Positions 1,955 through 38,605 of a stretch of 64,000 bases of DNA are shown here, piece by piece. The DNA comes from a bacterium. GTDB taxonomy: Bacteria > Zhuqueibacterota > Zhuqueibacteria > Residuimicrobiales > Krinioviventaceae. The stretch covers positions 2,592,001 through 2,656,000 of the forward strand of contig CAXXMD010000003.1 of the NCBI GenBank assembly GCA_963675755.2, in the 5' to 3' direction. Position 1 is the stretch's first letter; each line of letters opens with the position of its first letter. Under the pieces are notes generated by a model, which was given only the letters and a program-made list of their open reading frames with translations, did not search any database and had not been told where the DNA came from. The position numbers and the translations under genes were made by a program.

Positions 1955-4945
1955 TTACCTGTGAATCCGTAAACCAAAGACATAAGATTTATACTCACCC
2001 CAGTATACATTGTCGCTCCAGGTTCTCAGTATTTGGGGATTGGTCAATTCGTCAGTACCCAATTCGTCTAGTCTGCCCGAGTTCCACAAATCATCATAAT
2101 AATCTTCCTGACTGTCTCCACCGGGAATACTACGGAACTTGGAATGATAAATGTTACTTACATCCATATAGAATTCCATATTGGTGTTGAAAAGAGAGAA
2201 CACTCTTGAAAAGCGCATGTTTGCCCAATATTTGTCCAGTTCCTTGAACCAGACATCAGGATGTTCATCATTAAAGCTGTCACGCGGATGTTTTCTTCGT
2301 GTTCCACCTTGATAAAAGATCTGGAAGCTGAGGTTTGAGTTGGAAACCAGCGGGAACTTGCCGATTTTTGGACCCCAGTCTGCCGGTGCAGAGAATGTGA
2401 TTACACCACGTGCATCTGGCTGGATGTAATTGATATTGGAACGAGGAACGCCCCATAAAACACCATTATTACCAATATTGGGATCATCAGTAATAATTGG
2501 GATCTGGCTCAGGTTTGGAATCTCGAGGTTGGCTTCACTTTCTTTAATAAAGTTGTAATTGAACCAACCGGTAACAAAACGACCCATGGGTTTACGTAAT
2601 TCGATTTCAATACCGCGAATTTCTTTATAGTTGTTCTGGTCATACCATTCCAGTACCAGGGTTTGGTCACCATGGGCATAAACCATTCCACTTTCATAAC
2701 CGTCATAATCTTTGTAAAATGCACCAAGGTGTAATTGCAGATCGTATTTGATTCCAAAATCCGCACCCAACTCGTAGGCAATATTGGTTGGAAAGTCAAT
2801 ATCCGCATTACCCATAAATGTAACACGAGGTAGAGACCAGTCAACCATAGTATGGTAAAGCACTTCACTCGCTGCTACCTGAACAAAGTGACCATAGTTG
2901 AAATATATTTTGCTTCGATCAGACAGGGGATGTGAGATACCAACACGCGGACTGAAATAGACTTTGGGTTTGGGTCTGAAAGTGGGGTATTTATTGTTAA
3001 CATAATCATTGAACAGATCTTCATTGGTTGCATAAGAGAGAGCTTGATGTGGATCGGGTCGATCACAGTTTACATCAAAATAATCCATACGTAAACCAAT
3101 GTTGGCAATCATGCCCTGGAATTCCACTTTGTCTTGTACGAATGCTGCCATTTCAAGTGGAAAAACATGGTAATTGTGTGTAAAGAGTTGTGTTGAATCG
3201 CCATCATGCCAGTGAGTACGATCTTCAAGCATATCGTTGTAGTTGAATTCTAAACCAGCTTTTAACTCGTGTGCAGGATGGAACTGGCTGGTTAATTCTG
3301 CTTTTAATGTGGTTGCGTGATGATGGGAATTATCCCATGAATCTCCACCACCAAACATTTTAAATTGTTCACCGGGATCAGGTTCACCATTTGCTCTTGA
3401 AATCCAACCGGATTGCGGATCGTAATACAAGCGTCCGTGAAAATAACGACCATCTTCTGCTTTGGCAGAATCAGGTCTGCCAATGTTCCAGTTAATATTC
3501 AAATGGCTGAGTTTAACTTCGTAAAAAGTGGTTGGTGAAAGTGTGTGTGTAAATGTTGCGCCGGCAACCGTTGTATATCGGTTGAGGATAGGTCTGTGAT
3601 AGGGATAATAAGTATAACCACCGTCAATACCACCGCCATCATATTCTACCCGGTCTTCATGACTCCAGCTACTGTTTGATCTACCTTCTGTAACCGATCT
3701 GACCTCTGAATACATGTTATTCAGGGTCAGTTTCATGTTGGGAGAAAGGGTATTAACTATTTTTAAAGAACCAATCCGTTCATCATAATAGCGGCGTGAT
3801 TGCGGGTATTGGAAAGGTTTGTACTCAAACTTTCCACCCAGTAAAAAGTTTGCTTTCCATGGCAATATGGGAACTCTTCCAGACAAGGTTGCGTCAATAT
3901 TATGCCCGGTTTTATCGCCATAGTCTACAGGGCGATGACGCCATTGCCACAATTCATATGCTTCTTCTGCAGTCAGATCATTGTTGGGATTATCATCAGT
4001 TAACAATTCTTCTGCATAAGCATTCCAACCGATCCAGGTATATTCATCATCGTGAATACCGTCTGGTACCAGAATGGATCCGCCTTCAAAGGCACTCTCA
4101 CCGGCTTTTAACAACCATTCAGTACGATAATTTTTATCATATATATTTCGACCTGCGTGTCCCTGACGGGCTGGAGTCAATTGGTAGTCAACTGAAAAGT
4201 GTAAACGGTCTTCGGGATTTTTAGTAACCACATTGATCACACCTGAACGGGACTGACCATATTCTGCGTTAAAGCCGTTACGCATAAGTTTAATCTCTTC
4301 TACCGCGCCGGGTTGAATAGAGATTACAGGACGGTTAAATTTTTGGTCAAACATGTCCATACCGTCCATTAAAAAACCCACTTCCATAGCGTCACCTTCA
4401 CGGATCTTGATCTCGCCTTCCATAATGTTTCCGCTGACGCCTGACTGCAGGCTGATGATTTCTTCAACACGATTGGCAAACGGAGTGTTTTGATAATCAC
4501 TCTCTGAGATATAGCTTTCCGTACTGGCCACATCCGTTTTGATGATATCTCGTTGGGCTTGTACAACAACTTCGCCGCCTATATCAAGTACTTCCTGGTC
4601 AAGATCAAAATTTATTGTGGTTGTACGATCAACGCTTACATGAACGTTCTGTTTCAGTTGCTTACCGTAACCAATGATAGATGCAGTGACCGAATATGTA
4701 CCCGGAGGTACCTGCAGGATGATAAATTCACCGTCAATGTTGGATGCTGCACCTATTGCTCCATCAAAAGGAATTTCTTTACCTTCCTGCCATACATGAC
4801 TAATAAAGATATTGGCACCTGGCAGCCGTGCACCGTCAGCTACATCTTTGATAGTACCACGAATCTTACCAGTTACACCTCCAAATACTGATAGAGGTAG
4901 AATTATGAATAACAGTACATATTTCTTGATCCACTGATATTTCAT
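1955..4945 (-). CDS. TonB-dependent outer-membrane receptor with N-terminal carboxypeptidase-regulatory-like domain
   Basis: Signal peptide, GKIRGTIKD..LPGANI..GEFIILQVPPGTYSVTAS, plug motif NGFNAEYGQSRSGVINVVTK, SPRVGISHP, barrel-type C-terminus FGLRIH; start moved to ATG 4945 behind GAAGGAG. Confidence 0.9.
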   Translation of the reverse strand: MKYQWIKKYVLLFIILPLSVFGGVTGKIRGTIKDVADGARLPGANIFISHVWQEGKEIPFDGAIGAASNIDGEFIILQVPPGTYSVTASIIGYGKQLKQNVHVSVDRTTTINFDLDQEVLDIGGEVVVQAQRDIIKTDVASTESYISESDYQNTPFANRVEEIISLQSGVSGNIMEGEIKIREGDAMEVGFLMDGMDMFDQKFNRPVISIQPGAVEEIKLMRNGFNAEYGQSRSGVINVVTKNPEDRLHFSVDYQLTPARQGHAGRNIYDKNYRTEWLLKAGESAFEGGSILVPDGIHDDEYTWIGWNAYAEELLTDDNPNNDLTAEEAYELWQWRHRPVDYGDKTGHNIDATLSGRVPILPWKANFLLGGKFEYKPFQYPQSRRYYDERIGSLKIVNTLSPNMKLTLNNMYSEVRSVTEGRSNSSWSHEDRVEYDGGGIDGGYTYYPYHRPILNRYTTVAGATFTHTLSPTTFYEVKLSHLNINWNIGRPDSAKAEDGRYFHGRLYYDPQSGWISRANGEPDPGEQFKMFGGGDSWDNSHHHATTLKAELTSQFHPAHELKAGLEFNYNDMLEDRTHWHDGDSTQLFTHNYHVFPLEMAAFVQDKVEFQGMIANIGLRMDYFDVNCDRPDPHQALSYATNEDLFNDYVNNKYPTFRPKPKVYFSPRVGISHPLSDRSKIYFNYGHFVQVAASEVLYHTMVDWSLPRVTFMGNADIDFPTNIAYELGADFGIKYDLQLHLGAFYKDYDGYESGMVYAHGDQTLVLEWYDQNNYKEIRGIEIELRKPMGRFVTGWFNYNFIKESEANLEIPNLSQIPIITDDPNIGNNGVLWGVPRSNINYIQPDARGVITFSAPADWGPKIGKFPLVSNSNLSFQIFYQGGTRRKHPRDSFNDEHPDVWFKELDKYWANMRFSRVFSLFNTNMEFYMDVSNIYHSKFRSIPGGDSQEDYYDDLWNSGRLDELGTDELTNPQILRTWSDNVYWGEYKSYVFGLRIHR

Positions 4946-5070
4946 AAGGTCTCCTTCCCGAAATATATTGTTTATCAAATTTTTCCAGAGTTAAATTACT
5001 TATTATTCATTAATACGATATTAACGGATTGTTAATTTACAACTGAATCTTATTGTGACCTTTTACTTGG

Positions 5071-5088
5071 TAAGCAAACGTTTGCCTA
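5071..5088. promoter_or_regulatory. LacI/GalR-family operator-like palindrome
   Basis: Perfect GCAAACGTTTGC (5074-5085) inside TAAGCAAACGTTTGCCTA, ~130 bp upstream of the TonB receptor; central CG with A/T flanks is typical of LacI-family sites. Confidence 0.65.
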
Positions 5089-5416
5089 ATTTATGTATAA
5101 ATATGCTATAACTGAGAAAGAACTCTTAATGATTCTTGATACAAATTCTATAGTGTGATATTTTAATAGTTTGGGAACGGTTGATTCTGAATGATGTGAT
5201 GTTTGTTAAAAGAGTGACCATGCTATATATTTTTTTTAACATGTTGATATAATAAATCAGCATTTTTTTGTATAAGCAACTGATCTTGTTTCTTTTTATG
5301 GGTCTGTTAATTGTTGAAATCACTGTTTAATATATATTGAAATTATATAGAATGCAATAATTTTATCTATATTTTTATGATTTTTTTTTGATATTGCGTT
5401 AGGAATGATTTTTAAT

Positions 5417-5450
5417 AAAAAAGGCAACTGATTTACAGTTGCCTTTTTTT
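5417..5450. terminator. Intrinsic terminator, bidirectional shape, ending the catabolic operon
   Basis: AAAAAAGGCAACTG-attta-CAGTTGCCTTTTTT immediately after the MFS stop. Confidence 0.85.
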
Positions 5451-5453
5451 ATA

Positions 5454-6719
5454 TCAGAGATTTGCTGTTCCACGTTTGGATTTAAACCATAAAAGGAAGG
5501 TAAGAGCAGTACCCAATGTGGCTACAATAACCAGCATCATAAATATGGGTACCAGATCGTGATTATAGGTTTCGTAGAGAAAACCAATAATTTCTTCCTG
5601 AAAGATAGGGCCAATTGAGCCAATACCATTAATAATACCTGCGGCAGCAAGTGCGCTTTTTTTGGATGTTACATCAATAGCGCCAACTCCTGACAGAAGC
5701 GAGTCGGGGCCGTAAAGCATGAATCCGGCAAGTCCCATAGAGATTGTAAAATAGAGAACACTGTTTGCGCCAAATGTATACATGATAAAGAATGAAACGG
5801 TCATGAAAAATAACATTAAAAATGCAATCAATGAGCGTTTACCTTTGAATAATTTGTCTGACGCCCATCCCGCAAAGATAACACCTGCAAAACCGGTCAA
5901 ATCAAATATTGTAGACAAGTATCCCGCTTCATCACCCTGTAGTGCAAAGTTTTTATTCAGGAAAAAGGGTGCCCAGCTCCAAAGAGCATATCTCAGGAAT
6001 TTAATACAAAAGTACACCATTCCCATAAGAACGACTGTGAAAATGACGTCTTTTGACCATTTTTCTTCTTTGCCGTCATCAACTGTATCTTCTTCATCTT
6101 CATCTTTCAAGGGTTCAAGGCCAACATCTTCCGGCTTGTTGGGATGAATTAAAAGAACGACTGCCCAAATAACGAGAAGTACAATTGATGCACCAAAAAA
6201 TGACCATCTCCAACCTGCCAGGCCCAAAAGGAATGCGGCAAATGAACTGGCTGCCAGCGAACCGACCTGATAGCAGGTAGACCAAACACCCAATATGGTT
6301 CCACGTTGTTTACGTTTGTACCAAAATGCCAAACTGCCAATGCAGCCCGGCCAGCCTGTTCCCTGGGCAAGACCGTTTAAACTCAGAAACAGCATAATGG
6401 TCCAGTAGCTGTTGGAAATACCAAACATGAAATTGCAGAATAATGAAATTCCCATTCCAACGAGTAGCAGCAACTTGGGGCCTAGTTTTTTCCCGAAAAA
6501 TGCACTTGAGAATTGACCTACCATGTAAAATACCAGGTAAGCGGTACCCAAATGTGCCAGATCAATGGCTGTCATACCCAGATCGCCAGCCATTGCACTT
6601 TTTACTACATAGAAAGCTTTACGACAAAAATAGTACCCGGCATAAGAAAGCCAGGTAGCGGCAAATATTTTAACCTGCCAGGGCCGATAAGCATTTTTAA
6701 TTGATACTTGCTCTTTCAT
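5454..6719 (-). CDS. MFS transporter, organophosphate:Pi antiporter (GlpT/UhpT/SLC37-like) family
   Basis: About 12 hydrophobic segments; N-terminal YAGYYFCRKAF motif and NGLAQGTGWP..GS..WY.RKQRG are OPA-family signatures. Confidence 0.8.
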   Translation of the reverse strand: MKEQVSIKNAYRPWQVKIFAATWLSYAGYYFCRKAFYVVKSAMAGDLGMTAIDLAHLGTAYLVFYMVGQFSSAFFGKKLGPKLLLLVGMGISLFCNFMFGISNSYWTIMLFLSLNGLAQGTGWPGCIGSLAFWYKRKQRGTILGVWSTCYQVGSLAASSFAAFLLGLAGWRWSFFGASIVLLVIWAVVLLIHPNKPEDVGLEPLKDEDEEDTVDDGKEEKWSKDVIFTVVLMGMVYFCIKFLRYALWSWAPFFLNKNFALQGDEAGYLSTIFDLTGFAGVIFAGWASDKLFKGKRSLIAFLMLFFMTVSFFIMYTFGANSVLYFTISMGLAGFMLYGPDSLLSGVGAIDVTSKKSALAAAGIINGIGSIGPIFQEEIIGFLYETYNHDLVPIFMMLVIVATLGTALTFLLWFKSKRGTANL

Positions 6720-6731
6720 AGGCTCTGCCCT

Positions 6732-7580
6732 TTATTTTTTTTGCATTACCTGCTTGGTTAACCAATTTTTAAATTCCAGTTCACGAATATCATCATCTAA
6801 AAGGTCTTCATCGATTGCCAGTTTCCAACGCAGGTCTTTGGTGTCATCAGATTTGACAATCTCGTCATATTGAGCCACCAGTTCTGTCAACGCTTCATGG
6901 CTTTTGAAATAGTTTTCGCGGGTCAGTTTCTCCTCACGAGCTTCAATGAGTCTGGCCATTTCATAAAGATTATACTCGGGATGGTATTGTGTAGCCCAGA
7001 AAGTGCCTTTTTTGTATGTAACACTGACTGCCTGTACATAGGTAAAGCTGTTGCCTGCCAGACGTGTTGCACCCTCTGGTAGTCCGGTAATATGATCATC
7101 ATGACTGATAAATCCGTCAAACGCCATAGGTTTGCCTTCATACATGGGGTGCGTTTTACCTTCGTCTGTAAGGTATACCTTGCGTGCAACGCCCATTTCT
7201 CGACCTTTGGGGTTGGGTTCAACTTTGCCGCCTGCAACATATACTGCTAGCTGTGCAGCCCAGCAGCTGCCAAATTGCGGTATACCGGTTTCGTACGCCA
7301 AGTTTGCAATTTTGATCATGGTTATTACCCGTTCATCATCTGTATGATAAACAGTAAGGTTGCAGCCCGGCCATAAAACGCCATCATAATTATCTAAATT
7401 ATCGGGGATGATTGTTTCTGTGTCGCTGGTATATAAAATATCATATTGGGCATTGGGCATGTATTTCAGCAATAGATTTGCATAGAGCTGCCCTGCCAGT
7501 GTCATTCCTACCTGGTCGAATTGGTCTCTACTTTTTTGGGGATATCCGTCCAGTATTAAAAATCGCATAGTATCTGCCAT
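6732..7580 (-). CDS. Class I glutamine amidotransferase-like protein, possibly a gamma-glutamyl hydrolase
   Basis: Nucleophile elbow FGSCWAAQ and C-terminal TQYHPE give the Cys-His-Glu triad. Confidence 0.8.
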   Translation of the reverse strand: MADTMRFLILDGYPQKSRDQFDQVGMTLAGQLYANLLLKYMPNAQYDILYTSDTETIIPDNLDNYDGVLWPGCNLTVYHTDDERVITMIKIANLAYETGIPQFGSCWAAQLAVYVAGGKVEPNPKGREMGVARKVYLTDEGKTHPMYEGKPMAFDGFISHDDHITGLPEGATRLAGNSFTYVQAVSVTYKKGTFWATQYHPEYNLYEMARLIEAREEKLTRENYFKSHEALTELVAQYDEIVKSDDTKDLRWKLAIDEDLLDDDIRELEFKNWLTKQVMQKK

Positions 7581-11216: not shown

Positions 11217-12953
11217 TTATTCGTTAATCTTTTTTTTATTGTATCCGGGTTTTCGTTTAGCGGAGCCAGATTTGGTTGTAAGAATGTTTTTTTGTCTTTC
11301 TTTATCCCGAATGTCTTTTGTGATTTTTAATTTTTCACCGGTAAAGGGGTTGATTTCTGTATAGTACATAAGCGTGGACCAGGTTGACGGGGTAGGAGTG
11401 AAGACCTGGACCTGCTCTGGTGCAATGGAAAGGGTCTTTGACGCGTAATGTTTCAACTCGTGCATTTCTTTATCTGTACAGCCAGGATGTGCCGCTATAA
11501 AATAATAGGTAAGGAACTGGTTTTTACCTGCTGATTTTGAGTGCTTTTCAAATTCTTTTTTAAAGCTTTCAAGCGTATATGTACCCGGTTTGCCCATGAG
11601 TTTTAACACCCGGTCATTCGTGTGTTCAGGAGCAATTTTTAATTGTCCCGATGTATGATGACAGGCAACTTCGTGCAAGTATTCGCTGCCGTATTTTTCA
11701 TCATCCAATACCAGGTCATATCGAATGCCGGATGCTACAAAAACTTTGTTTACTCCATTGATCTTGCGTAATGATTTTAGCAGATCAATAGCGGGTTTAT
11801 GTGTGGGTTTTAATGTTTTACAAGTTGTGGGGAAAATACAACGTTTGTCTGAGCAAACTCCGGATTTTAGTTTCTTTGCGCATTCAAATCCATACATGTT
11901 GGCCGTGGGGCCACCTGCGTCAGAAATGATGCCTTTGAAACGTGGATGTTGAGTAAAATTTTTTGCTTCGTTGATGATAGATTCCGGACTGCGGCTGATC
12001 ACCGTACGTCCCTGGTGCACGGCAATAGCACAGAAATTACATTCTCCGTAACATCCCCGATGCGTGGGAATTGAAAAACGTATGGTGTCAAGAGCACGGA
12101 TTTTGCCTGATTTCGCTTCTGCGGGGTGAGGTTCGCGTTCATATCCCAGTTCGTGAACCGCATCCAGTTCGGAAGTATTCATGTGCGGTTGGGGAGGATT
12201 CTGGACCAGGTATCTGTCACCGGTTTTCTGGAGCAAACCCTTTGCGGTCAATGGGTCCATGTTTTGATAAAATGTTTGAAACATATTGATGAATGCTGAT
12301 TTGTCATCTTTGCATTGCTCAAAAGCTGGCAGTTGCAGGTATCCTGAAACCGGTTCTTTCGAAATGTAACATAATCCTTTTATGTTATCTGCGGATTGAT
12401 TTTGTTGAAGTGCTTTAGCAAATTCTAACACGGCTTGTTCTGCCATACCATATAATAAATAATCTGCTTTAGCGTCAAACAGGATAGGTCTGCGTATTGA
12501 ATTGGACCAGTAATCGTAATGCGCTATACGACGCAGACTGGCTTCAATTCCACCTAAAACTATGGGAACTGTGTTTTTAAAATAACGGCGCACAAGGTTT
12601 GAATAGGCTATGACTGCCCGGTCTGGTCTTTTGTTGTTGATGCCGCCGGGGGTATAATCATCCTGCTGACGACGTTTTTTTGTTGCTGTATAATTCGCCA
12701 CCATAGAATCTACACTGCCGCCGCTGATTCCCCAAAACAGTTCAGGTTCGCCCAAACGGGTTATATCGTCAGGAGATTGAATGTCCGGTTGCGCAATAAT
12801 GCCCACCCGAAATCCGTGCTTAACCAGCCACTTGCCAATGACGGCAATGCCTATAAAAGGACTGTCGATATAACTGTCACCGCTGATCAGTATCACATCA
12901 AGCTTTTTCCAGCCCAATGCAAGCGCTTCTTTTTTTGTCATAGGTAAAAACAT
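11217..12953 (-). CDS. ygiQ: YgiQ (UPF0313) family radical SAM protein
   Basis: LDVILISGDSYIDSP, GGIEASLRRIAHYDYWS, HRGCYGECNFC (CxxxCxxC), EQVQVFTPTP; start moved to MFLPMT at 12953. Confidence 0.88.
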   Translation of the reverse strand: MFLPMTKKEALALGWKKLDVILISGDSYIDSPFIGIAVIGKWLVKHGFRVGIIAQPDIQSPDDITRLGEPELFWGISGGSVDSMVANYTATKKRRQQDDYTPGGINNKRPDRAVIAYSNLVRRYFKNTVPIVLGGIEASLRRIAHYDYWSNSIRRPILFDAKADYLLYGMAEQAVLEFAKALQQNQSADNIKGLCYISKEPVSGYLQLPAFEQCKDDKSAFINMFQTFYQNMDPLTAKGLLQKTGDRYLVQNPPQPHMNTSELDAVHELGYEREPHPAEAKSGKIRALDTIRFSIPTHRGCYGECNFCAIAVHQGRTVISRSPESIINEAKNFTQHPRFKGIISDAGGPTANMYGFECAKKLKSGVCSDKRCIFPTTCKTLKPTHKPAIDLLKSLRKINGVNKVFVASGIRYDLVLDDEKYGSEYLHEVACHHTSGQLKIAPEHTNDRVLKLMGKPGTYTLESFKKEFEKHSKSAGKNQFLTYYFIAAHPGCTDKEMHELKHYASKTLSIAPEQVQVFTPTPSTWSTLMYYTEINPFTGEKLKITKDIRDKERQKNILTTKSGSAKRKPGYNKKKINE

Positions 12954-14170: not shown

Positions 14171-17100
14171 ATGACAAAAAAAATGAAAAAGAATGCAAAT
14201 AATTTAGATGCAAAGCGTCTTCAACTTGCTCTTGAAGCAGCCAATGGAGCCGCTTTTTATTATGATTTAGTAAATGACATCGTTGAATGGGATGATGCCA
14301 ATTTTGAATTATTTGGTTACGATAAAGATAATTTTACCGGTACACGGGAAGTATGGGTAAAGAGGATCCACCCGGATGATTTGTCTGTTGCTGTGAATGC
14401 GATGGATGAAGCCTTTGCAGATAAAGATAGAGAAAGTTTTAATATCGAATATCGTATTGTTCGTCCTGATGGAGATATACGTTATATCAATGCCAGGGCC
14501 TGGGTTGATAGGGCTGTAAATGGAAAACCCCTTTCTTTTGCAGGAATCCATTTTGATATTACAGAACAAAAACTTGCCGAAATTGAATTAAAAGAATCTG
14601 AAAATAAATATCGTTTGCTCTATGAAGGTTTAAAAGATGCTGTATTATTAATTGATAAAGATGGCTATTTTGATTTTAATTCAGCTGCCTGCGAGATGTT
14701 TGGGTATACAGCTGAAGAAATGAAAAAACTGCACATGCGTGATCTCGCTCCGGAAGGGTATAATGAAATTCCCGAATATCTTTCATTGCAAAGACAAAAT
14801 TATACCAGAACACTTGAGGAGGGGCCGCAACAATTTGAATGGATACATAGACGGAAAAATGGTGAGCTTTTTGAAGTTGAAGTAGTTACCCGAATGGTTG
14901 AATTGAATGGCAGAATGATAATGCAGGGAGTTATTCGGGATGTTTCTAATCATAAGAAATTACAAAGAGACCTATTAAAAAGTCAGGCAGATCATCGTAG
15001 GGCTCAGGAAATTGCCAGGTTCGGACATTGGCTTTTTGATGTTGAGACTGAAATTTTTACAGGTTCGAAAGAGGCTTTGAGGCATTACCAGTTAAAGAAT
15101 AAAAGTGCCTCATTATATGAAATTGCAGAAAAGATTGATCCCGGTTTTCGCATAATGGTATATCGCCAATTTAATGATTGTATTAATTTAGGAAAGCGGT
15201 TCAATCACGATTTTCAAATCATTCTTGAAGATAATAGCAGAATGTGGATCAATTCCGTTGCATATCCGGAACTGGATGCTCAGGGAAATGTTGTGAAAAT
15301 TGTGGGCACCACAATGGATATTACCAAACGCAAGGAGACAGAACTTGCCCTTGAAGAGCATTCCCATTTTGAACGTATCATAAATCGTCTTTCATCCAAT
15401 TTGGTTGAACTGAAAGATCTCGATGAAAAGATCGAGAATATTTTGGGTATTATTGGAGAGTTTGCCAAAGTCGATTGGGCTTATGTTTATTTAATGAGTG
15501 ATGATGGCGTGTATATTGAAAATACTCATGACTGGAGATCTGAGATACTTGAAGGAACCTCAAATGCCTATAAACGCGTAAATCCTGGTAAAGATTTGCC
15601 CTGGTTTTGGTCTCTGATCAAAACGGGGGAAACTGTTCATCTACCTTCATTCGATTCCTTACCTGAAAGAGCACGTCCTGAAAAAGAAATCTGGAGCTCT
15701 CAAAATTTAAAGTCATTATTAGCTATACCTATGTTCAATAACCACAGGTTGGTAGGATTATTGGGCTTTGCTACCGTAAAGAAACAAAAGGCCTGGAACG
15801 ATAATGTGATTTCATTATTGAAAATTACCGGAGAAACCTTTGGCCGAGCTTTGGAGCAAAAGCGTATGTATGATTCTCTCCGCAGAAGTGAAGAACGTTT
15901 CAGAAAATTAATTAAAGATTCTCCGGTGGCAATGGTTGTTAGCGATTCCAATATGTTTGTTATGGATGTAAACAGTCAGTTTGAAGAATTGACAGGTTAT
16001 AACCGCAGAGACTTGTCACATGAAAAGATCTGGTGGGATCTCCTGGTTCCCAATCCGCAATACAGATTCCATATTAAGCAATGGTGGGATAAAATTATCA
16101 ATGATGCCATTGATAACAAAAATTCTGTAACAGAACCTATTGAGGTGGTTTTTACTTGTAAAGATGGTTCTAAAAAAGATATTTTAATAAACATGGCATT
16201 TACGGGTGATCTTAAATTAATTGTACTTCAAGATTATACCAAACAAAGACAGGGCGAAGCACTTTTGCAGGCCCAGCGTGATCTGGCTATTGCGCTTGGG
16301 CAAAGTGTAGGCCTGGAAGAAACGCTTCAAGTTTGTACCGAAGCGGCAATTAATAGTTCGTTTATGGATTGCGGTGGTGTGTATCTTGTTAATCCTGTTA
16401 ACAAGGGGTTGGATTTAAAATACCATATAGGTTTATCAACACTATTTTCTGATAAAACAGTCCACTTTGAAAAAAACTCTTCAAATGTTAGTGTAGTAAT
16501 GAAAGGGGAGCCTGTTTACACAAGTTATGAAAAATTATCAACAGATTTGAACATAAAACTTGATTGTGAAGGTTTAAAAGCAATAGCCAAGTTGCCTATC
16601 AAATACAAGGATCAGGTTATTGGGTGTATGAATGTGGCTTCTCATTTGCTTGAAGATGTGCCGGATTATTCAAAATTAATTCTTGAAACCATTGCAAGTC
16701 AAATGGGTCAGGCGATAATGCGTGAACATGCATTGGATGTACAAAGAGAACGTGAAGAAAATCTTGCAATGTTTTTTGAATCTGTTAATGATTTCTTGTT
16801 TGTATTGGATGAGCGAGCATCTATACTGCAAATAAATCCTGCGGTTACTCAACATTTGGGATATAAAGAACAGGATTTGGTAGGAGAAACTATTTTATCG
16901 CTTCATCCTGAGGAATTAAAAAGTATTGCTTCTGAAATCATTCTGGATATTTTATCAAAAAAACGTTTCTTGTATGACATTCCATTGTTAACAAAAGCCG
17001 GAAAAGAGATACCTGTTGAAACCAAAGTTACTACTGGTCAATGGAATGGGAAAACGGCTTTCTTTTGTATCAGTCGTGATGTTACCGAAAGAAAACGTGC

Positions 17101-34338: not shown

Positions 34339-35070
34339 ATGCCTTCGACACCGGATTTTACACATTACACCATTCAACAGCTTGTGGATGCCTACCACAA
34401 TATCAACCGGAATCTGTATCCGGAGAGCTTTGAGAAATTGCTCAAAGAAATTGAATTGCGGGGAATGACAGAAGTTGATGTGGTGAATTATACCCAGCCG
34501 CAAGATACACACCCCAAGCAAAAGTACATCCGGAATTACTGGATGGTATTGCTCTTTGGTGTGCTAACATTTGGGATTTACTGGTATTATTGGTACTATG
34601 CAAACCTGGAAGAAATTGGCAAAGCGTTTAAATTTGAAAAAAGTGAAAAAGAATTAACAATCGCCAAAGTTGCATGTGTTGTTATTATAATACTCCGGTT
34701 CAGTAATTTGGGTGCTTCCGGTGTGACAGGTAATGAAGAGACCCCGGAAGAATTGATCTCTGTATTTTCTGGTCTGCTCATTTACCTGATCATTATGTAT
34801 TTTCTTGAAAATTTTTTCATGTTTATTTATCTGCATGCAATTCAAGTGGGACAGGAAAAAGCAAACGTAAAACTTTTACCCAAATTTGCCATGTTTGCAG
34901 CTTATGTTATATCAACAGGATTGCCATTTTTGTCTATTTTTACAATGAATTCATCGATAATTATTATTAGTGTGCTTGTTTGTATGCTTGTTTTAGTGGG
35001 GTTTTATTATACCCTGCAGGAGCAGATCAACACAATTTGGGAAGCGGTAATTGATAAAGAAATCATATAG
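34339..35070 (+). CDS. DUF4234-like membrane protein, paralog 1
   Basis: VLLFGVLTFGIYWYYWYY and terminal LQEQINTIW; four hydrophobic segments. Confidence 0.7.
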   Translation: MPSTPDFTHYTIQQLVDAYHNINRNLYPESFEKLLKEIELRGMTEVDVVNYTQPQDTHPKQKYIRNYWMVLLFGVLTFGIYWYYWYYANLEEIGKAFKFEKSEKELTIAKVACVVIIILRFSNLGASGVTGNEETPEELISVFSGLLIYLIIMYFLENFFMFIYLHAIQVGQEKANVKLLPKFAMFAAYVISTGLPFLSIFTMNSSIIIISVLVCMLVLVGFYYTLQEQINTIWEAVIDKEII

Positions 35071-35113: not shown

Positions 35114-35860
35114 ATGACAGCACCGGAATTTTCAAAATATTCATTAGAGCAGTTAAAAGATGCTCACGCAAACATTAACCGTAATCTTTATCCCGAAAAT
35201 TACAATCTGCTGGTTGAAGAATTGAAAAAACGGGGGATCTCTGAAGAAGATATGAATAATCCCAGGGTTATGGAACCGGAGGGCCTTTTGCAAGAAAATA
35301 TTCGCAGTTACGGAAAGGTGTTGCTCTTTGGTATAATAACCTTGGGTATTTACTGGCTTTACTGGTATTATGCCAACCTGAAAGAGCTGGATAGACATTT
35401 TGTGTGTGAAAAAGATGAAAAAGATATTAAACTGGCTTTGAATGCATTTGTGATATATATTATTTTACATATTGTAGCAATGTTTGTTGCAATAGCTGTT
35501 GTGATTGCCAGGATTGAAACCATAGCTGATGCTCCGGCGTACCCCACACCCGGATTAGAATCCATGCTGGTTAGCTTTTTCTCTTTGTTGGTAGAGTCTG
35601 TCTTTATTTTTATGTTTTTGAATGCAGTTAAACTGGGCCAGGAAAAAGCAAAGATTGAAGGTTTTACACTTTTTCCCATGTTTGCTTTATATCTGGGTGG
35701 AGTAATATGTCAGTTTATCTATTCTGCGTTTATGCTGCCATTGATCTCGATTCTAAGCGCCGTTTTGCTTATTTTGTTTTATTACAAGCTGCAGGATGGA
35801 ATCAATTCGATTTGGAAGGCTGAGATTGAAGGTGAGGCGGAACATTATATCGTTTCTTGA
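35114..35860 (+). CDS. DUF4234-like membrane protein, paralog 2
   Basis: VLLFGIITLGIYWLYWYY, LQDGINSIW; shares NINRNLYPE and GQEKA with paralog 1. Confidence 0.7.
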   Translation: MTAPEFSKYSLEQLKDAHANINRNLYPENYNLLVEELKKRGISEEDMNNPRVMEPEGLLQENIRSYGKVLLFGIITLGIYWLYWYYANLKELDRHFVCEKDEKDIKLALNAFVIYIILHIVAMFVAIAVVIARIETIADAPAYPTPGLESMLVSFFSLLVESVFIFMFLNAVKLGQEKAKIEGFTLFPMFALYLGGVICQFIYSAFMLPLISILSAVLLILFYYKLQDGINSIWKAEIEGEAEHYIVS

Positions 35861-35946
35861 TATGCGCTATTTACAAAGATAGAATTTGAATCGGTTTGCA
35901 CGAATAGTGATGTTTTACAGGTTTTTTTAGGTTTTGAGAATCTAGA

Positions 35947-36427
35947 TAAAACGCAGAGTCGCAGAGTTCGCAGAGGTAGTGGATGTGTTTTATAATGGGG
36001 GTGATTTATGATGCATGAGAATGAAATATCAGGTAAAATTATTGGAGTGAAGTACATCGGGTTTTAGGTCCTGGTTTGATAGAATCGGTATATGAAAATG
36101 CGCTTTGTCATGAATTGCATTTGTTGGATATTGATTTTAAACGGCAGCAAAATATCCCAATCCCTTACAAAGGAGTAAATTGGGGCTCTGATTTAAGATT
36201 AGACCTGTTGGTTGCTGATAAGGTAATTGTTGAATTAAAGGCAAAGGAAAAATTATCCCCTATTGACAAACCCAAGCTTTTGACATATCTGAGATTATGT
36301 GACAAAAAGCTTGGCCTTTTGATTAATTTTCATGTAAATAGGTTAAGTGATGGTGTGTCACGGGTTGTAAATGGTTTATAAGAATTTTTAAAATTTCTCT
36401 GCGTTCACTGCGCCTCTGCGTTTATTG
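35947..36427 (+). mobile_element. Repeat-bounded element 1: GxxExxY gene between (CGCAGAG)x3 imperfect inverted repeats
   Basis: Left TAAAACGCAGAGTCGCAGAGTTCGCAGAG (35947-35975); right CTCTGCGTTCACTGCGCCTCTGCGTTTA (36397-36424); mobility is inferred. Confidence 0.55.
36008..36381 (+). pseudogene. GxxExxY (PD-(D/E)XK nuclease) protein, frameshifted near the 5' end
   Basis: ATG 36008 gives MMHENEISGKIIG then TAG at 36065; another frame from 36049 gives EVHRVLGPGLIESVYE...RLDLLV..VELKA..LLTYL..GLLINF. Confidence 0.85.
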
Positions 36428-36513
36428 GTTTATTGTTTTGATAATCAATTGTAACTATTTTTACCACCAGCGAACTCGTACTCGAACCGGTTTGATATTT
36501 TTAAGGAGTTTTT

Positions 36514-37182
36514 ATGAATATCAGAATTTTTATGTTTTTAATTGCAATGGTCATGTTTTCCTGTCAGGAGGCCCCATCTATGAAAGAATCCATTCACTGG
36601 AAACTGGATAATCTGCAAAACATAAACGGACATGCGGTCACTGTATTGGGCAATCCCGAGGTTGTCGACATCAATGGAGGGGCGGCTATACAGTTTAACG
36701 GACAAACCGATGCCATTGTTTTGGATAACATCCCGGTCCCGGATTTTGCCGAGTTTACCATAGAGGTGGTTTTTCGGCCCGATTCCAATGGTAACGAGGC
36801 ACAGCGATTTTTCCATATTCAGGAGTCCAATGATCACCGGATTTTGATGGAAACCCGGTTGGTTGAGGGCAATCAATGGTTTCTTGATACATTTATCAAG
36901 TCGGGTGAAAACGAGCATGCTTTATTTGCCAAAGAATTTTTACATCCCACCGATCTATGGTATCATCTGGCCCTGGTTTATGATGGCGAAATGATGAGAC
37001 ATTATGTAAATGGCAGCAAGGAAATGGAAAGCGAGCTAAAGTATGAACCGATTCAACATGGAGAAACGTCCATTGGCTGCCGTTTGAATCGGGTATATTG
37101 GTTCAAGGGAGCGATTCGGGAAATCCATGTGACTCCGTCTGCATTGTCTCCGGATGGTTTTGAATTGCGTGAACTGTTGTAA
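36514..37182 (+). CDS. LamG/concanavalin-A-like domain lipoprotein
   Basis: Lipobox MFSC; FTIEVVF, WYHLALVYDG..HYVNG, IGCR..FKGAIRE. Confidence 0.8.
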   Translation: MNIRIFMFLIAMVMFSCQEAPSMKESIHWKLDNLQNINGHAVTVLGNPEVVDINGGAAIQFNGQTDAIVLDNIPVPDFAEFTIEVVFRPDSNGNEAQRFFHIQESNDHRILMETRLVEGNQWFLDTFIKSGENEHALFAKEFLHPTDLWYHLALVYDGEMMRHYVNGSKEMESELKYEPIQHGETSIGCRLNRVYWFKGAIREIHVTPSALSPDGFELRELL

Positions 37183-37196
37183 ATTGTCTTTTAGTT

Positions 37197-38605
37197 TAAC
37201 GCAGAGTCGCCGGGTTCGCAGAGGATATGAAAGTGTTTTATAGTGGGGATGATTAATGATGTATGGGAATAAAATGTAACTGACCTTATTAAGGAAAATA
37301 ATGAAACAAAAATTGATCATAATTTTTTTCTTTTTCAAGATTGCAATATCTGCTGAAACACCGTGGATGGTTTATATGGAACCCGCGGCAAATGACCAGA
37401 AAAGATTAGTCGTATATGATATTGGTAGCGACTCGTTGATTACAGATTTTTTTGTAAATATACAAGGAACTTTTCTAGGAATGAAGTTTTTTTCAAACAC
37501 CGGAATCATTGGTTACACGTCTGAAGATCATTTATATAAGATTGATATTAAAAACAAAAAAATTGAGGACCTTCCCGAGTTAAATGGGGCGGCATTCAAT
37601 TATAATCAAGATATATGGATTATCTTGTATGGTGATACTTGCAACGTGAATGTGCCTGGAAAATCGTTTTCAATAGATGTGAAAAATGTCATAACCCCAA
37701 AATACCGAGAAATTGTTCGTTTTGAATGGGTATTGAAAAAAGAGGAAGCAATTTATATTGGTGTGTTGACGATTGATGATAAAAATAAGTACCACCGTGT
37801 ATTGATCAAGCAAAACCGTGATGGAATAACATGTCGTAATATTGTAAACAAAACCGGATTATTATTTAAGGTGCAAAACTGTATTGAAGAAAAGAGTAAT
37901 CCTTATAATGATAATATTGGATTAATTTATACGAATTCGAGAATATCAGAACATGAATTGGTCTTTTTTGATTTGCAGAAAAACGAACTTGTCCATGTAG
38001 CCTCTGATGTAGATGATTTTATATGGTTGAATAATGATTCATTGGCATTATTTTCATATAATCACAATACTGATAAATATCAGATTGATCTGTATAATTC
38101 AGTGACAAAAGACAGGGACGAGTTGTTTCAATATGATCATATTGGTTTTAATCAAAATTTGTGTTACTTTAATAAGTCTTTGTATTTCAAACATTTTTCT
38201 AGATTTATTGAGATCTTTACAAAAATTAAATTCAGAAAATATAATTTGTTGACAAAAAAAGTTATAGATGTTCTTGAATTTAATAAAAGTCGAGATTCCT
38301 ATTACGAATATTTTGATTGGGATATTCGAATTGTAAATCTTGAAGATTAGTTTTAATCAACTGGCTTGTTTTCCAAAAGTTGAATAATTGTAATGATACT
38401 AGAATAATGAGTTTGAAGTATTTCTATAATATTTGTCAAATTGTTTAGATTGATATCGGACCTCCGGCTCGACGCTGCGTCAGCCGGTTGGTGAACACGC
38501 TATAAAGGGGCTGCACTTTAACGACAAAACAATATTTTCACACTCTGACATTTGGGGAACAAGGCTTAAAATTTCTCTGCGTTCACTGCGTCTCTGCGTT
38601 TATTG
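37197..38605 (+). mobile_element. Repeat-bounded element 2: same ends as element 1, unrelated cargo gene
   Basis: 37197-37275 aligns with 35949-36027 including the first GxxExxY codons; 38566-38605 equals 36388-36427 at 39/40 nt. Confidence 0.55.
37301..38350 (+). CDS. Hypothetical secreted beta-rich protein, possibly a beta-propeller; cargo of element 2
   Basis: 349 aa, N-terminal hydrophobic stretch, short beta-strand-like repeats (LYKIDIKNKK, LVFFDLQKNE, IDLYNSVTKD); visibly more AT-rich than its neighbours. Confidence 0.7.
   Translation: MKQKLIIIFFFFKIAISAETPWMVYMEPAANDQKRLVVYDIGSDSLITDFFVNIQGTFLGMKFFSNTGIIGYTSEDHLYKIDIKNKKIEDLPELNGAAFNYNQDIWIILYGDTCNVNVPGKSFSIDVKNVITPKYREIVRFEWVLKKEEAIYIGVLTIDDKNKYHRVLIKQNRDGITCRNIVNKTGLLFKVQNCIEEKSNPYNDNIGLIYTNSRISEHELVFFDLQKNELVHVASDVDDFIWLNNDSLALFSYNHNTDKYQIDLYNSVTKDRDELFQYDHIGFNQNLCYFNKSLYFKHFSRFIEIFTKIKFRKYNLLTKKVIDVLEFNKSRDSYYEYFDWDIRIVNLED

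Follow-up and report, generated by a model that had tools for sequence, protein, structure and literature searches.

Intervening sequences (IVSs) of the 23S rRNA, known in Leptospira and Coxiella, are similar in many respects to the units analyzed here. Passages of PMC4990558 describe the Coxiella IVS as a 428-444 nt element that hosts an S23p ORF and ends in a 28-bp terminal stem, which RNase III cleaves in vitro, and refer to the origin of 23S IVSs as unclear. Size (about 430-480 nt), terminal inverted repeats of 27-28 nt and an ORF of roughly 120 aa are shared by IVSs, as described in those passages, and by the units found here. In both the ORF is in sense to the host transcript, and genes of the IVS family (PF05635) have been found in this analysis outside rRNA, flanked by tandem-heptad arms. 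IVSs are located in helix 25 or 45, whereas the units here lie between protein-coding genes, carry a GxxExxY ORF of the PD-(D/E)XK type, and feature arms made of three spaced motif heptads. RNase III cuts the stem of the Coxiella element according to PMC4990558; the stem here is a predicted one.

Repeats and genes are associated also in REPIN/RAYT systems. In these, a small nuclease-type gene is found between inverted copies of a repeat; intergenic DNA contains tens to hundreds of further copies of this repeat, arranged as hairpin doublets, and the repeat type follows the gene lineage. RAYTs, however, are HUH Y1 transposases, and the proteins encoded here belong to the PD-(D/E)XK group (PF13366); REPs are single imperfect palindromes, whereas each arm here is a triple direct repeat. 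Gene clade and arm type, moreover, failed to match at the genome level in several of the draft genomes analyzed. Integrons similarly feature promoterless co-oriented ORFs set between variable imperfect palindromes (attC), with a content that differs among close relatives. In contrast to these, no IntI was found beside the array examined, attC core motifs were not seen, and the half-sites bracket the ORF symmetrically. Terminal inverted repeats, gene-less forms in which a short loop joins two arms, and derivatives resulting from internal deletions recall MITEs and TIR transposons, but neither target-site duplications nor a transposase were found here, and in one multi-copy family (G006) the repeated unit has the arms in its interior.

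No description of the arms was found in the open text searched, which takes in neither subscription journals nor supplementary files nor the comment fields of databases, and no family matching them is found in Rfam 15. Passages of a paper on TAACTGA repeats (PMC4679880) describe a different phenomenon. GxxExxY genes (PF13366 / TIGR04256) are abundant in many phyla, and are seldom named in the literature searched; in the part of a 2012 survey that deals with the family (PMC3424549), its function is given as unknown.

Two arm-bounded units in the window

The window, i.e. the whole stretch of 64 kb analyzed, hosts two units, all the features of which are described on the + strand. Unit 1 (35949-36423, ~475 nt arm to arm) is made of heptad arms and a GxxExxY gene. 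In unit 2 (37198-38601) heptad arms surround an unrelated gene encoding 349 aa. The left arm of unit 1 (35949-35975, AAA-CGCAGAG-T-CGCAGAG-TT-CGCAGAG), detected by inverted-repeat and pattern searches, and the right arm (36397-36423, CTCTGCG-TT-CACTGCG-C-CTCTGCG-TTT), detected by inverted-repeat search, are 27 nt long, 85% complementary and spaced by 421 nt. According to the same search, unit 2 arms (left, 37198-37223, with CGCCGGG as middle unit; right, 38575-38601) are complementary at 81% over 26 nt, on the right in the interval 38575-38600, and spaced by 1351 nt. Their orthologues in the sister genome are reduced to remnants, of two heptads at the left and one at the right end.

A previous sequence-only reading of this DNA had noted imperfect inverted repeats, a left end of ~78 bp common to the two units, and right ends alike at 39/40 positions. 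All these are confirmed: intervals 35950-36027 and 37198-37275 are 83% identical over 78 nt, and intervals 36388-36427 and 38566-38605 are identical at 39/40 residues. The ends had been denoted as (CGCAGAG)x3. Arms are indeed inverted and made of three heptads, but the exact triple is found only in the left arm of unit 1, the other arms including variant middle units (CGCCGGG, CGCAGTG). The pattern CGCAGAG-N1-12-CGCAGAG has 5 matches in the window, vs 0 in each of 100 shuffles.

Unit 1 is located between a DUF4234 gene and a gene encoding a Laminin_G_3 / concanavalin-like lipoprotein (36514-37182), which separates it from unit 2. A GGGGG ribosome-binding site is located in the leader (35976-36007) that follows the left arm. 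A sigma-70-like match in the same region, TTCGCA-18-TATAAT, is weak and overlaps the third heptad of the left arm. As consensus matches are weak only, a promoter inside unit 1 was considered and dropped; no terminator was found in the unit. Target-site duplications, a search for which the sequence-only reading had proposed, were not seen by inspection beyond the arms of either unit or of six copies of the same lineage. At the gathering threshold no Rfam match, rRNA included, was found in the window. Ten loci analyzed at E <= 0.1 gave only four sub-threshold matches to miRNA precursors, because they contain hairpins. No joints, circles or alternative forms were found in the contigs of X1-X4.

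Unit 1 is a GxxExxY cassette of a lineage marked by the residues ENEIS...CHELH, and its ORF has a length of roughly 125 aa. The frame starting at the ATG at 36008 is translated as MMHENEISGKIIGVKYIGF*. This 5' piece (36008-36067) stops after 19 codons, and the remainder of the gene (36076-36381) is in a shifted frame, where it retains the D...ELK nuclease motif and matches PF13366 (E 3.3e-28, 98.8 bits, cut-off 22). Alignment to six lineage relatives indicates that the frameshift results from a 7-nt deletion, and the interval 35927-36077 is identical, letter by letter, in a contig from a second sample. In unit 2 the shared left end continues in a leader and an eroded GxxExxY start (37224-37279), and all that is left of the protein is the peptide MMYGNKM* (37256-37279). 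Both local copies are dead, and neither can therefore be the acting enzyme. An intact paralogue matches TIGR04256 (153 bits, cut-off 35), and the D and ELK residues, corresponding to the catalytic D...ExK of PD-(D/E)XK enzymes, are aligned and conserved across GxxExxY proteins. A nuclease fold, weakly resembling Cas4 and lambda exonuclease, is seen in the confident structure model (pLDDT 95). The best Foldseek match has E 3.2e-3 and TM 0.50, with none at E <= 0.001, and a PDB sequence search with the intact protein gave 0 matches.

Arms and GxxExxY genes in this and other genomes

Triple-unit arms are found on both sides of 8/8 GxxExxY genes of this genome, within about 100 nt of each, while about 100 arms are present in all in 6.5 Mb. 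Seven copies of the lineage of unit 1 are found at unrelated loci, and in these similarity starts at the left arm and ends at the right arm. Among 76 loci from relatives and other phyla, 46 have arms scoring above the 95th percentile of a control of 300 mismatched upstream/downstream pairs (medians 30.5 for loci, 17 for the control). Three of the loci are from genome bins labelled Betaproteobacteria, Planctomycetota and Anaerolineae in their records. The repeats are thus the conserved ends of a unit travelling with GxxExxY, as had been supposed from the window, and delimit small gene cassettes of a class that is widespread and apparently undescribed.

Either end of a cassette consists of about three heptads, which fit the consensus C-R-C-N-R-A-K and are separated by spacers of 1-3 nt; the array at one end runs in the opposite orientation to that at the other. 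Positions C1, C3, A6 and K7 are conserved across phyla, a constraint that a plain stem does not explain and that points to sequence-specific recognition. Strict arms range from 2 to 381 per genome, vs 0-9 for the backwards control. One genome (G029) is essentially armless (2 vs 1 in the control), and also has no GxxExxY match. Of 79 strict arms found here, 8 flank GxxExxY genes and 28 belong to hairpins; for the other 43, the nearest 90 nt contain no partner. This last group does not support the sequence-only reading. Several GxxExxY genes lie between complete hairpins on both sides (L025, L033, L055, L056).

Other small repeat families of this genome occur at the same places as the arms. A repeat family of ~410 nt in G006 was analyzed in the expectation that arms were its termini; they turned out to be internal.

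Arm sequence varies with the encoded protein. The seventh base of the heptad is G in 22/22 cases in one protein clade, and T or A in 13/13 in the other. On the protein tree this link amounts to one split only, and hence to one event. In the genome analyzed every arm type has a resident gene; besides the two of the window, no GxxExxY gene has CGCAGAG-type arms. The match of dominant arm type and GxxExxY clade within the same genome is contradicted in three draft genomes. In two, G-type arms dominate (182/194 in G016, 126/130 in G023) though the only gene detected belongs to the other clade; in the third (G017) the dominant arm type is similarly mismatched with the only detected gene. G015 has 44 arms and no detected GxxExxY gene, in an analysis in which draft assemblies may hide genes. 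In G019 and G027 dominant arm type and gene clade are consistent. This genome-level comparison is accordingly given no weight as support.

The sequence-only reading had also considered that the two ends pair in RNA. The predicted fold of unit 1 agrees with this, as the arms are paired both in the minimum-energy and in the centroid structure (z -2.65; 0/100 shuffles as good), and cassettes have a strict orientation. Relying on crude stop-to-stop ORF calls in related genomes, cassettes are co-oriented with both neighbours at 18/21 loci, and antisense at 0/18 of the loci where both neighbours agree. RNA-type covariation, in contrast, was not found in the arms, where wobble-compatible mismatches (49) are about as many as those of the opposite type (46, p 0.84). 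Nor was a register effect detected, units being alike at 5.83/7 positions in register and at 5.73/7 out of register. About 16% of the positions are mismatched in aligned arms, and arms of some cassettes are poorly complementary, as CACGAAT and CACAGAT (L006, L053). Genes encoding four-helix-bundle (S23p) proteins outside rRNA have analogous inverted arms made of tandem heptads, though of very different units; 13/27 of these loci have scores higher than 95% of the control, and one of the cassettes is located inside a MacAB-type operon. Given the precedent of 23S IVSs, the predicted pairing of the arms and the co-orientation of cassettes, pairing of the ends in RNA is at least as well supported as mobility at the DNA level.

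Interior changes and the cargo of unit 2

Unit 2 has kept the leader and the first codons of the GxxExxY ORF, the rest of which is replaced by about 1.3 kb. The replacing DNA includes the AT-rich cargo gene (37301-38350, 349 aa), with a signal-peptide-like N-terminus, and one copy (38449-38517) of a separate family of 69-nt dispersed repeats, which has 5 copies in the genome. As anticipated, the interior is unrelated to GxxExxY. The 349-aa ORF matches no Pfam or NCBIfam family, and a protein atlas search retrieved weak, unnamed neighbours only. Its closest relative in the sister genome, an 83% DNA match (G001:2232661-2233735), is found directly 3' of an ORF matching TIGR03696 (Rhs core, E 2.5e-13), and a match at the DNA level to the Rhs-core portion of L050 is found close to one G000 paralogue. 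No toxin gene adjoins the copy in the window. Because its sister relative directly follows an Rhs-core ORF, the cargo looks like an orphan immunity gene, and is probably Rhs-immunity-like.

Seven regions have been compared between two congeners. At three orthologous sites, the one hosting unit 2, C3:1148923-1150162 and C3:1442676-1443338, the arms are retained and the interiors differ, with breakpoints 0-24 nt from the inner ends of the arms. The presence/absence comparison suggested by the sequence-only reading was therefore positive at these sites. Exactly arm-bounded differences were found in these 3 regions only. Neither of two indels in L114 is arm-bounded, nor are the one examined indel in L135 and the difference in L134; in L133 a cassette array differs. 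The sister genome has no DNA match to unit 1 or to the adjoining Laminin_G_3 lipoprotein gene. Since unit 2 arms are orthologous to the sister remnants, unit 2 is no recent local copy of unit 1, and is placed by this comparison at an older site with arms common to the sister genome. An inversion of the interior of unit 2 between congeners was also considered. The inverted match is a copy of the 69-nt dispersed repeat, and therefore proves nothing.

GxxExxY N-terminal fragments were retrieved from relatives in 20 instances; 4, cut by contig ends, were excluded, and 16 analyzed. Three are internal deletions retaining both arms (L104, L106, L108), three are decayed full-length cassettes, and 10 lack a convincing right arm. 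Foreign cargo between matched arms, as in unit 2, was found clearly in none of the 16, with one borderline case (L092) among the 10, in which two ORFs precede an arm-like match scoring 26. In the explanation preferred here, what looks like capture in unit 2 would result incidentally from the replacement of DNA between lasting arms, and be no dedicated function.

Interpretation and significance

With a probability of roughly one half, units 1 and 2 are best explained as decayed members of a class of IVS-like promoterless cassettes residing in operons, unit 2 being a cassette in which the ORF has been replaced. In this explanation the arms are the cis boundaries of the cassettes. As these are promoterless and co-directional within gene strings, they would be transcribed by read-through. 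As happens in 23S rRNA IVSs, the two arms would then pair over a long range in the transcript, and cleavage of the resulting stem by RNase III may free or insulate the ORF in between. In DNA, where tens to hundreds of arms are present, these may serve as boundaries and short homologies, at which the interior of a cassette could be deleted, replaced or exchanged. Against this explanation are the lack of an RNA-type signal in the arms, their mismatches, the unit positions conserved across phyla, the internal location of arms in the G006 family, and the congener differences that arms do not bound. Nothing found here demonstrates a GxxExxY-driven machinery dedicated to capture: both local nuclease genes are dead, target duplications were not found, RNA-type covariation is missing in the arms, and none of the 16 fragments clearly resembles unit 2.

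It is possible, if on the unlikely side, that GxxExxY is a sequence-specific PD-(D/E)XK nuclease reading the heptad arrays in DNA, and mobilising or homing the units they bound, in the way of RAYTs with REPINs or of homing endonucleases. Gene-less hairpins would be non-autonomous derivatives or targets, and foreign genes would enter by break repair between arms. The heptad consensus conserved in four phyla, the seventh base fixed by protein clade, and the symmetric spectrum of arm mismatches, as expected of DNA sites, all fit this scheme, as do the excess of strict arms over the control, the genome lacking both arms and gene, the deletion derivatives with both arms, the congener differences ending at arms, and the conserved catalytic residues in a well-modelled nuclease fold. 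Yet the clade-to-base link counts as one evolutionary event, G-type arms dominate where only a gene of the other clade was detected, and one genome has arms and no detected gene. The local genes are dead, no other GxxExxY gene here has arms of their type, and target duplications were not found. Four-helix-bundle cassettes share the layout and have no nuclease, and to our knowledge a nuclease of 125 aa cannot by itself join strands. It is similarly possible, though unlikely, that the large GxxExxY family consists of heptad-specific nucleases forming, with their triple-heptad arms, a new self-propagating cassette system. Its mechanism would parallel that of RAYT/REPIN or of homing endonuclease genes; it would seed hundreds of hairpins per genome and exchange enclosed genes, with four-helix-bundle IVSs as a sister type. 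If true, this would explain both the origin of 23S IVSs and the acquisition of the unit 2 cargo.

Rather improbable is a one-off event, in which the arms are generic REP/BIME-like hairpin repeats, unit 2 is a GxxExxY cassette, duplicated locally or long ago, that suffered an unrelated insertion and a deletion, and arm-bounded congener differences reflect indels ending in the intergenic DNA where repeats live. Strict arms without a close partner are many, cargo cases like unit 2 are at best one borderline among the fragments, several congener indels end away from arms, and several other small repeat families are found at the same places; the association of arms with GxxExxY, however, is far beyond chance in this genome and holds across phyla, the breakpoints at three loci are next to inner arm ends, and unit 2 arms have orthologues in the sister genome. 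Finally, arm-loop-arm hairpins might be attC-like sites, recognised by their structure, at which a recombinase encoded elsewhere inserts and excises promoterless cassettes, GxxExxY and four-helix-bundle genes being frequent passengers. This seems very improbable, although fixed cassette orientation, GxxExxY genes between complete hairpins, and diverse units sharing mainly symmetry all recall integrons. At C3:38255-42830, moreover, three co-oriented ORFs are each followed by a conserved 3' module with a junction hairpin at its end, whereas a single hairpin and a single, different ORF are found at this site in the sister genome. No integrase or other recombinase was nevertheless found in the 14 kb preceding this array, the one examined, which encode MacAB-type transporters, a sigma-54 regulator and a histidine kinase; GTTRRRY-type core sites were not seen by inspection, and passengers would not be expected to show so tight and lineage-specific a link of arms with GxxExxY.

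Returning to IVS-like cassettes, GxxExxY genes come with clade-specific inverted heptad arrays, which are therefore a candidate substrate for biochemistry. S23p genes with the same layout suggest that 23S IVSs may belong to a broader class of cassettes, as those of its representatives that reside in rRNA. Many of these genes are found at contig ends, and arms thus matter for assembly breaks. The arms, whose copies run into the hundreds per genome, coincide with gene-content differences between congeners, and may matter for local plasticity.

Two decayed cassettes in the window

Unit 1 (35949-36423) and unit 2 (37198-38601) are neighbouring gene cassettes ended by inverted arms, each an array of about three spaced CGCAGAG-like heptads. 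In unit 1 the arms (35949-35975 and 36397-36423) each span 27 nt, with 85% complementarity; in unit 2 (37198-37223 and 38575-38600) each spans 26 nt, with 81%. Left ends common to both units span 78 nt (83% identical), and common right ends span 40 nt (39/40 identical). Paired CGCAGAG heptads at most 12 nt apart occur 5 times in the window and 0 times in each of 100 shuffles. The unit 1 ORF is a GxxExxY protein (PF13366 profile match, E 3.3e-28); the 349-aa ORF of unit 2, here called the cargo, matches no Pfam or NCBIfam family. The region as described by the sequence-only reading, with paired inverted ends, shared left and right ends and an unrelated 349-aa interior, was borne out on re-reading. 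The GxxExxY gene that it had placed in unit 1 is recognizable as such, but its frame is broken: 19 codons from the ATG at 36008 are followed by a stop, because of a 7-nt deletion established by alignment against six relatives of the same lineage. A contig from a second sample has identical letters across the break. All that is left of GxxExxY in unit 2 is MMYGNKM and a stop. Target duplications, which the same reading had proposed to look for, are visible neither at the two units nor at the lineage copies compared. Both units have decayed, and both belong to a class of arm-bounded GxxExxY cassettes found across phyla.

The only close relative of the cargo is an 83% DNA match in G001, a complete sister genome of the same genus, where it directly follows an ORF ending an Rhs core (TIGR03696, E 2.5e-13). 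The genome hosting the window (G000) has two distant paralogues, 40% and 36% identical at the protein level; close to one of the two is DNA matching the Rhs-core portion of the G001 locus. In polymorphic toxin systems immunity genes follow Rhs toxin domains as a rule. By position, the cargo is a putative immunity-type gene, orphan in G000.

The 3' non-coding part of unit 2 includes a 69-nt GC-richer dispersed repeat (38449-38517), found in 5 copies in G000 and, inverted, once in the orthologous spacer of the sister genome. Directly upstream of unit 1 are two tandem paralogous membrane-protein genes (34339-35070 and 35114-35860) with weak DUF4234 matches, 93% conserved in the sister genome.

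Heptad arms in this and other genomes

G000 (6.48 Mb, three contigs) has eight GxxExxY genes by tblastn. Each of the eight is preceded by about three spaced heptads and followed by their reverse complement. Heptad sequence varies among copies, being CGCAGAG, CACGAAG, CACAGAG, CACGGAT, CACGAAT or CACAGAT. Scanning without bias for triple 7-mers of any sequence at period 8-10 gave 60 loci, vs 8 once the genome was shuffled; of those 60, about 39 were judged by reading to be of the C-R-C type. Strict-pattern arms number 79, of which 8 flank GxxExxY genes and 43 stand alone, lacking a partner arm within 90 nt. Another 28 of the 79 lie in arm-loop-arm hairpins (20 facing outward, 8 inward), which fold much better than their shuffled versions do (z -3.9 to -9.1).

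Some arms enclose or separate other sequences. L009 (G000 C3:1071900-1072700) and four similar loci carry non-coding stretches of about 300 nt between heptad arms, sharing short conserved hairpins such as GTTCCAGGGCAGAGCCACTGGAAC and lacking Rfam matches. Rhs-type loci at G000 C3:637-642 kb and C2:1962-1970 kb hold orphan toxin and immunity modules, separated from one another by near-identical CACGGAT-arm junction hairpins.

PF13366 is present in 29 of the 31 genomes searched, G000 included. In 76 of the 80 gene-bearing loci tested, flanks were usable, and the upstream flank was compared with the reverse complement of the downstream one; in 46/76 the match exceeded 95% of 300 mismatched control pairs. 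Three loci, from genome bins labelled Betaproteobacteria, Planctomycetota and Anaerolineae, have the arm architecture seen in G000. Strict arms range from 2 to 381 per genome, vs 0-9 for the backwards control. For seven copies of the unit 1 protein lineage, drawn from six genomes and unrelated surroundings, the alignment runs from left arm to right arm and stops there, as expected from the earlier view of the repeats as unit ends. Judging from these alignments, the conserved unit ends at the arms, which travel with the GxxExxY gene.

Among the 46 cassettes above threshold, 35 could be assigned a class by protein motif as well as by unit. Units end in G in all 22 GxGLLE cassettes, in T or A in all 13 GxGFLE cassettes; both clades conserve positions C1, C3 and A6. 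The association corresponds to a single well-supported split on the protein tree, and therefore shows that arms and gene were long inherited together and retained, rather than adapted to each other repeatedly.

At L085 (G006:C138:5182-5880) 14 consecutive CACNAAT units precede a GxxExxY gene, which suggests that unit number changes by slippage; it also differs between orthologous arms of G000 and G001. At L060 (G022:C414:6748-7798) the topology is inverse: the GxxExxY gene has a right-type arm immediately before it and a left-type arm immediately after it, as if placed inside the loop of a junction hairpin. A repeat of about 410 nt, found in at least 7 copies on seven contigs of G006 (L180-L186), carries its heptad arms internally: they are set in from the conserved ends by about 75 and 85 nt and enclose a non-coding core, likewise conserved, of about 190 nt.

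Arms persist while interiors change

Seven regions were compared with G001. The genes flanking the window locus have 93% and 88% matches in G001, where the spacer between them is about 420 nt vs 2746 nt in G000. G001 retains 2-unit left and 1-unit right remnants of the unit 2 arms around an unrelated interior; neither unit 1 nor the Laminin_G_3 gene between the two units has a DNA match there. The unit 2 arms are thus older than the G000/G001 split. At C3:1148923-1150162, a GxxExxY cassette and a second arm-bounded ORF of 226 aa in G000 correspond to about 190 nt between the same arms in G001. At C3:1442676-1443338, G000 has a GxxExxY cassette and G001 a 118-aa lipoprotein-like ORF, without relatives in G000, between the same outer arms. 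Identity breaks 0-24 nt from the inner arm ends at all three loci, the kind of arm-bounded difference that the sequence-only reading had suggested seeking. At such sites the interior changes and the arms persist. A fourth region differs by a cassette array: where G000 has three ORF modules, each closed by a junction hairpin, G001 has one module of another kind; in the remaining regions indels do not end at arms.

The L133 array (G000 C3:36000-46000, about 2256-6830) has co-oriented ORFs encoding a 293-aa DUF5677-like protein, a 223-aa protein and a 626-aa S9 peptidase; at the end of each come a terminator-like hairpin, a CTGAATCAGGAATCAACTAT box, which is conserved, and a CACGAAG-arm junction hairpin. 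In the sister genome a single, different ORF and a single hairpin stand in its place. At L135 (about 11980-12010 and 14510-14540; G000 C3:113-115.6 kb) a second palindromic repeat, CTCCGTCCCAAATTCGATTTGGGACGGAAC, adjoins junction hairpins and bounds a 2.9-kb segment missing from the sister genome.

Intervening-sequence parallels and competing readings

Heptad arms are described neither in Rfam nor in the literature searched, which excluded supplements, subscription journals and database comments. GxxExxY cassettes resemble 23S rRNA intervening sequences (IVS), and the arms resemble REPs with an associated gene, but arm-bounded cassettes are not members of any known kind compared, because they lack a defining feature of each. 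In Coxiella the 23S IVS measures 428-444 nt, and its 28-bp terminal stem encloses an S23p ORF; the IVS is cut by RNase III in vitro, and its origin is described as unclear (PMC4990558). Genes of the S23p (four-helix-bundle, PF05635) family in G000 and relatives similarly have inverted tandem-heptad arms, of period 7 and very diverse units, 13/27 loci exceeding the 95th percentile of the control. One such gene (L188 9504-9863; G000 C3:33503-33862), with AGCTATC-type arms, lies co-directionally between the membrane-fusion and ATPase genes of a MacAB-type transporter operon.

Folding prediction pairs the arms of unit 1. By crude ORF calls in related genomes, GxxExxY cassettes are co-directional with both neighbouring ORFs in 18/21 loci, and in 18/18 where the neighbours agree, which fits promoterless cassettes read through from host promoters.

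That GxxExxY recognizes the arms in DNA and drives their spread or exchange is rather unlikely, though favoured by the conserved heptad motif and by symmetric arm mismatches (49 wobble-compatible vs 46 of the opposite type). Same-register units are no more alike than out-of-register ones; arms therefore share unit type without base-pair-level covariation. In draft genomes with many GxxExxY genes at contig ends, the genes detected do not predict the dominant arm type (G016, G023 and G017 are contrary, G019 and G027 fit). An ordinary one-off event involving generic hairpin repeats is more doubtful still. The swappable cargo proposed earlier holds in that interiors differ at three G000/G001 loci, but the unit 2 pattern clearly recurs in 0/16 analysable N-terminal GxxExxY fragments of relatives, with one borderline; several of the 16 are internal deletions retaining both arms. 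An integron-like system with an unseen recombinase is the most improbable; no integrase was found near the L133 array.

We give a probability of about 0.5 to a joint reading in which the arms would act mainly as a long-range RNA stem in read-through transcripts, as in IVS. At the DNA level they would be persistent boundaries where interiors get replaced, and the unit 2 cargo may be a by-product of such replacement.
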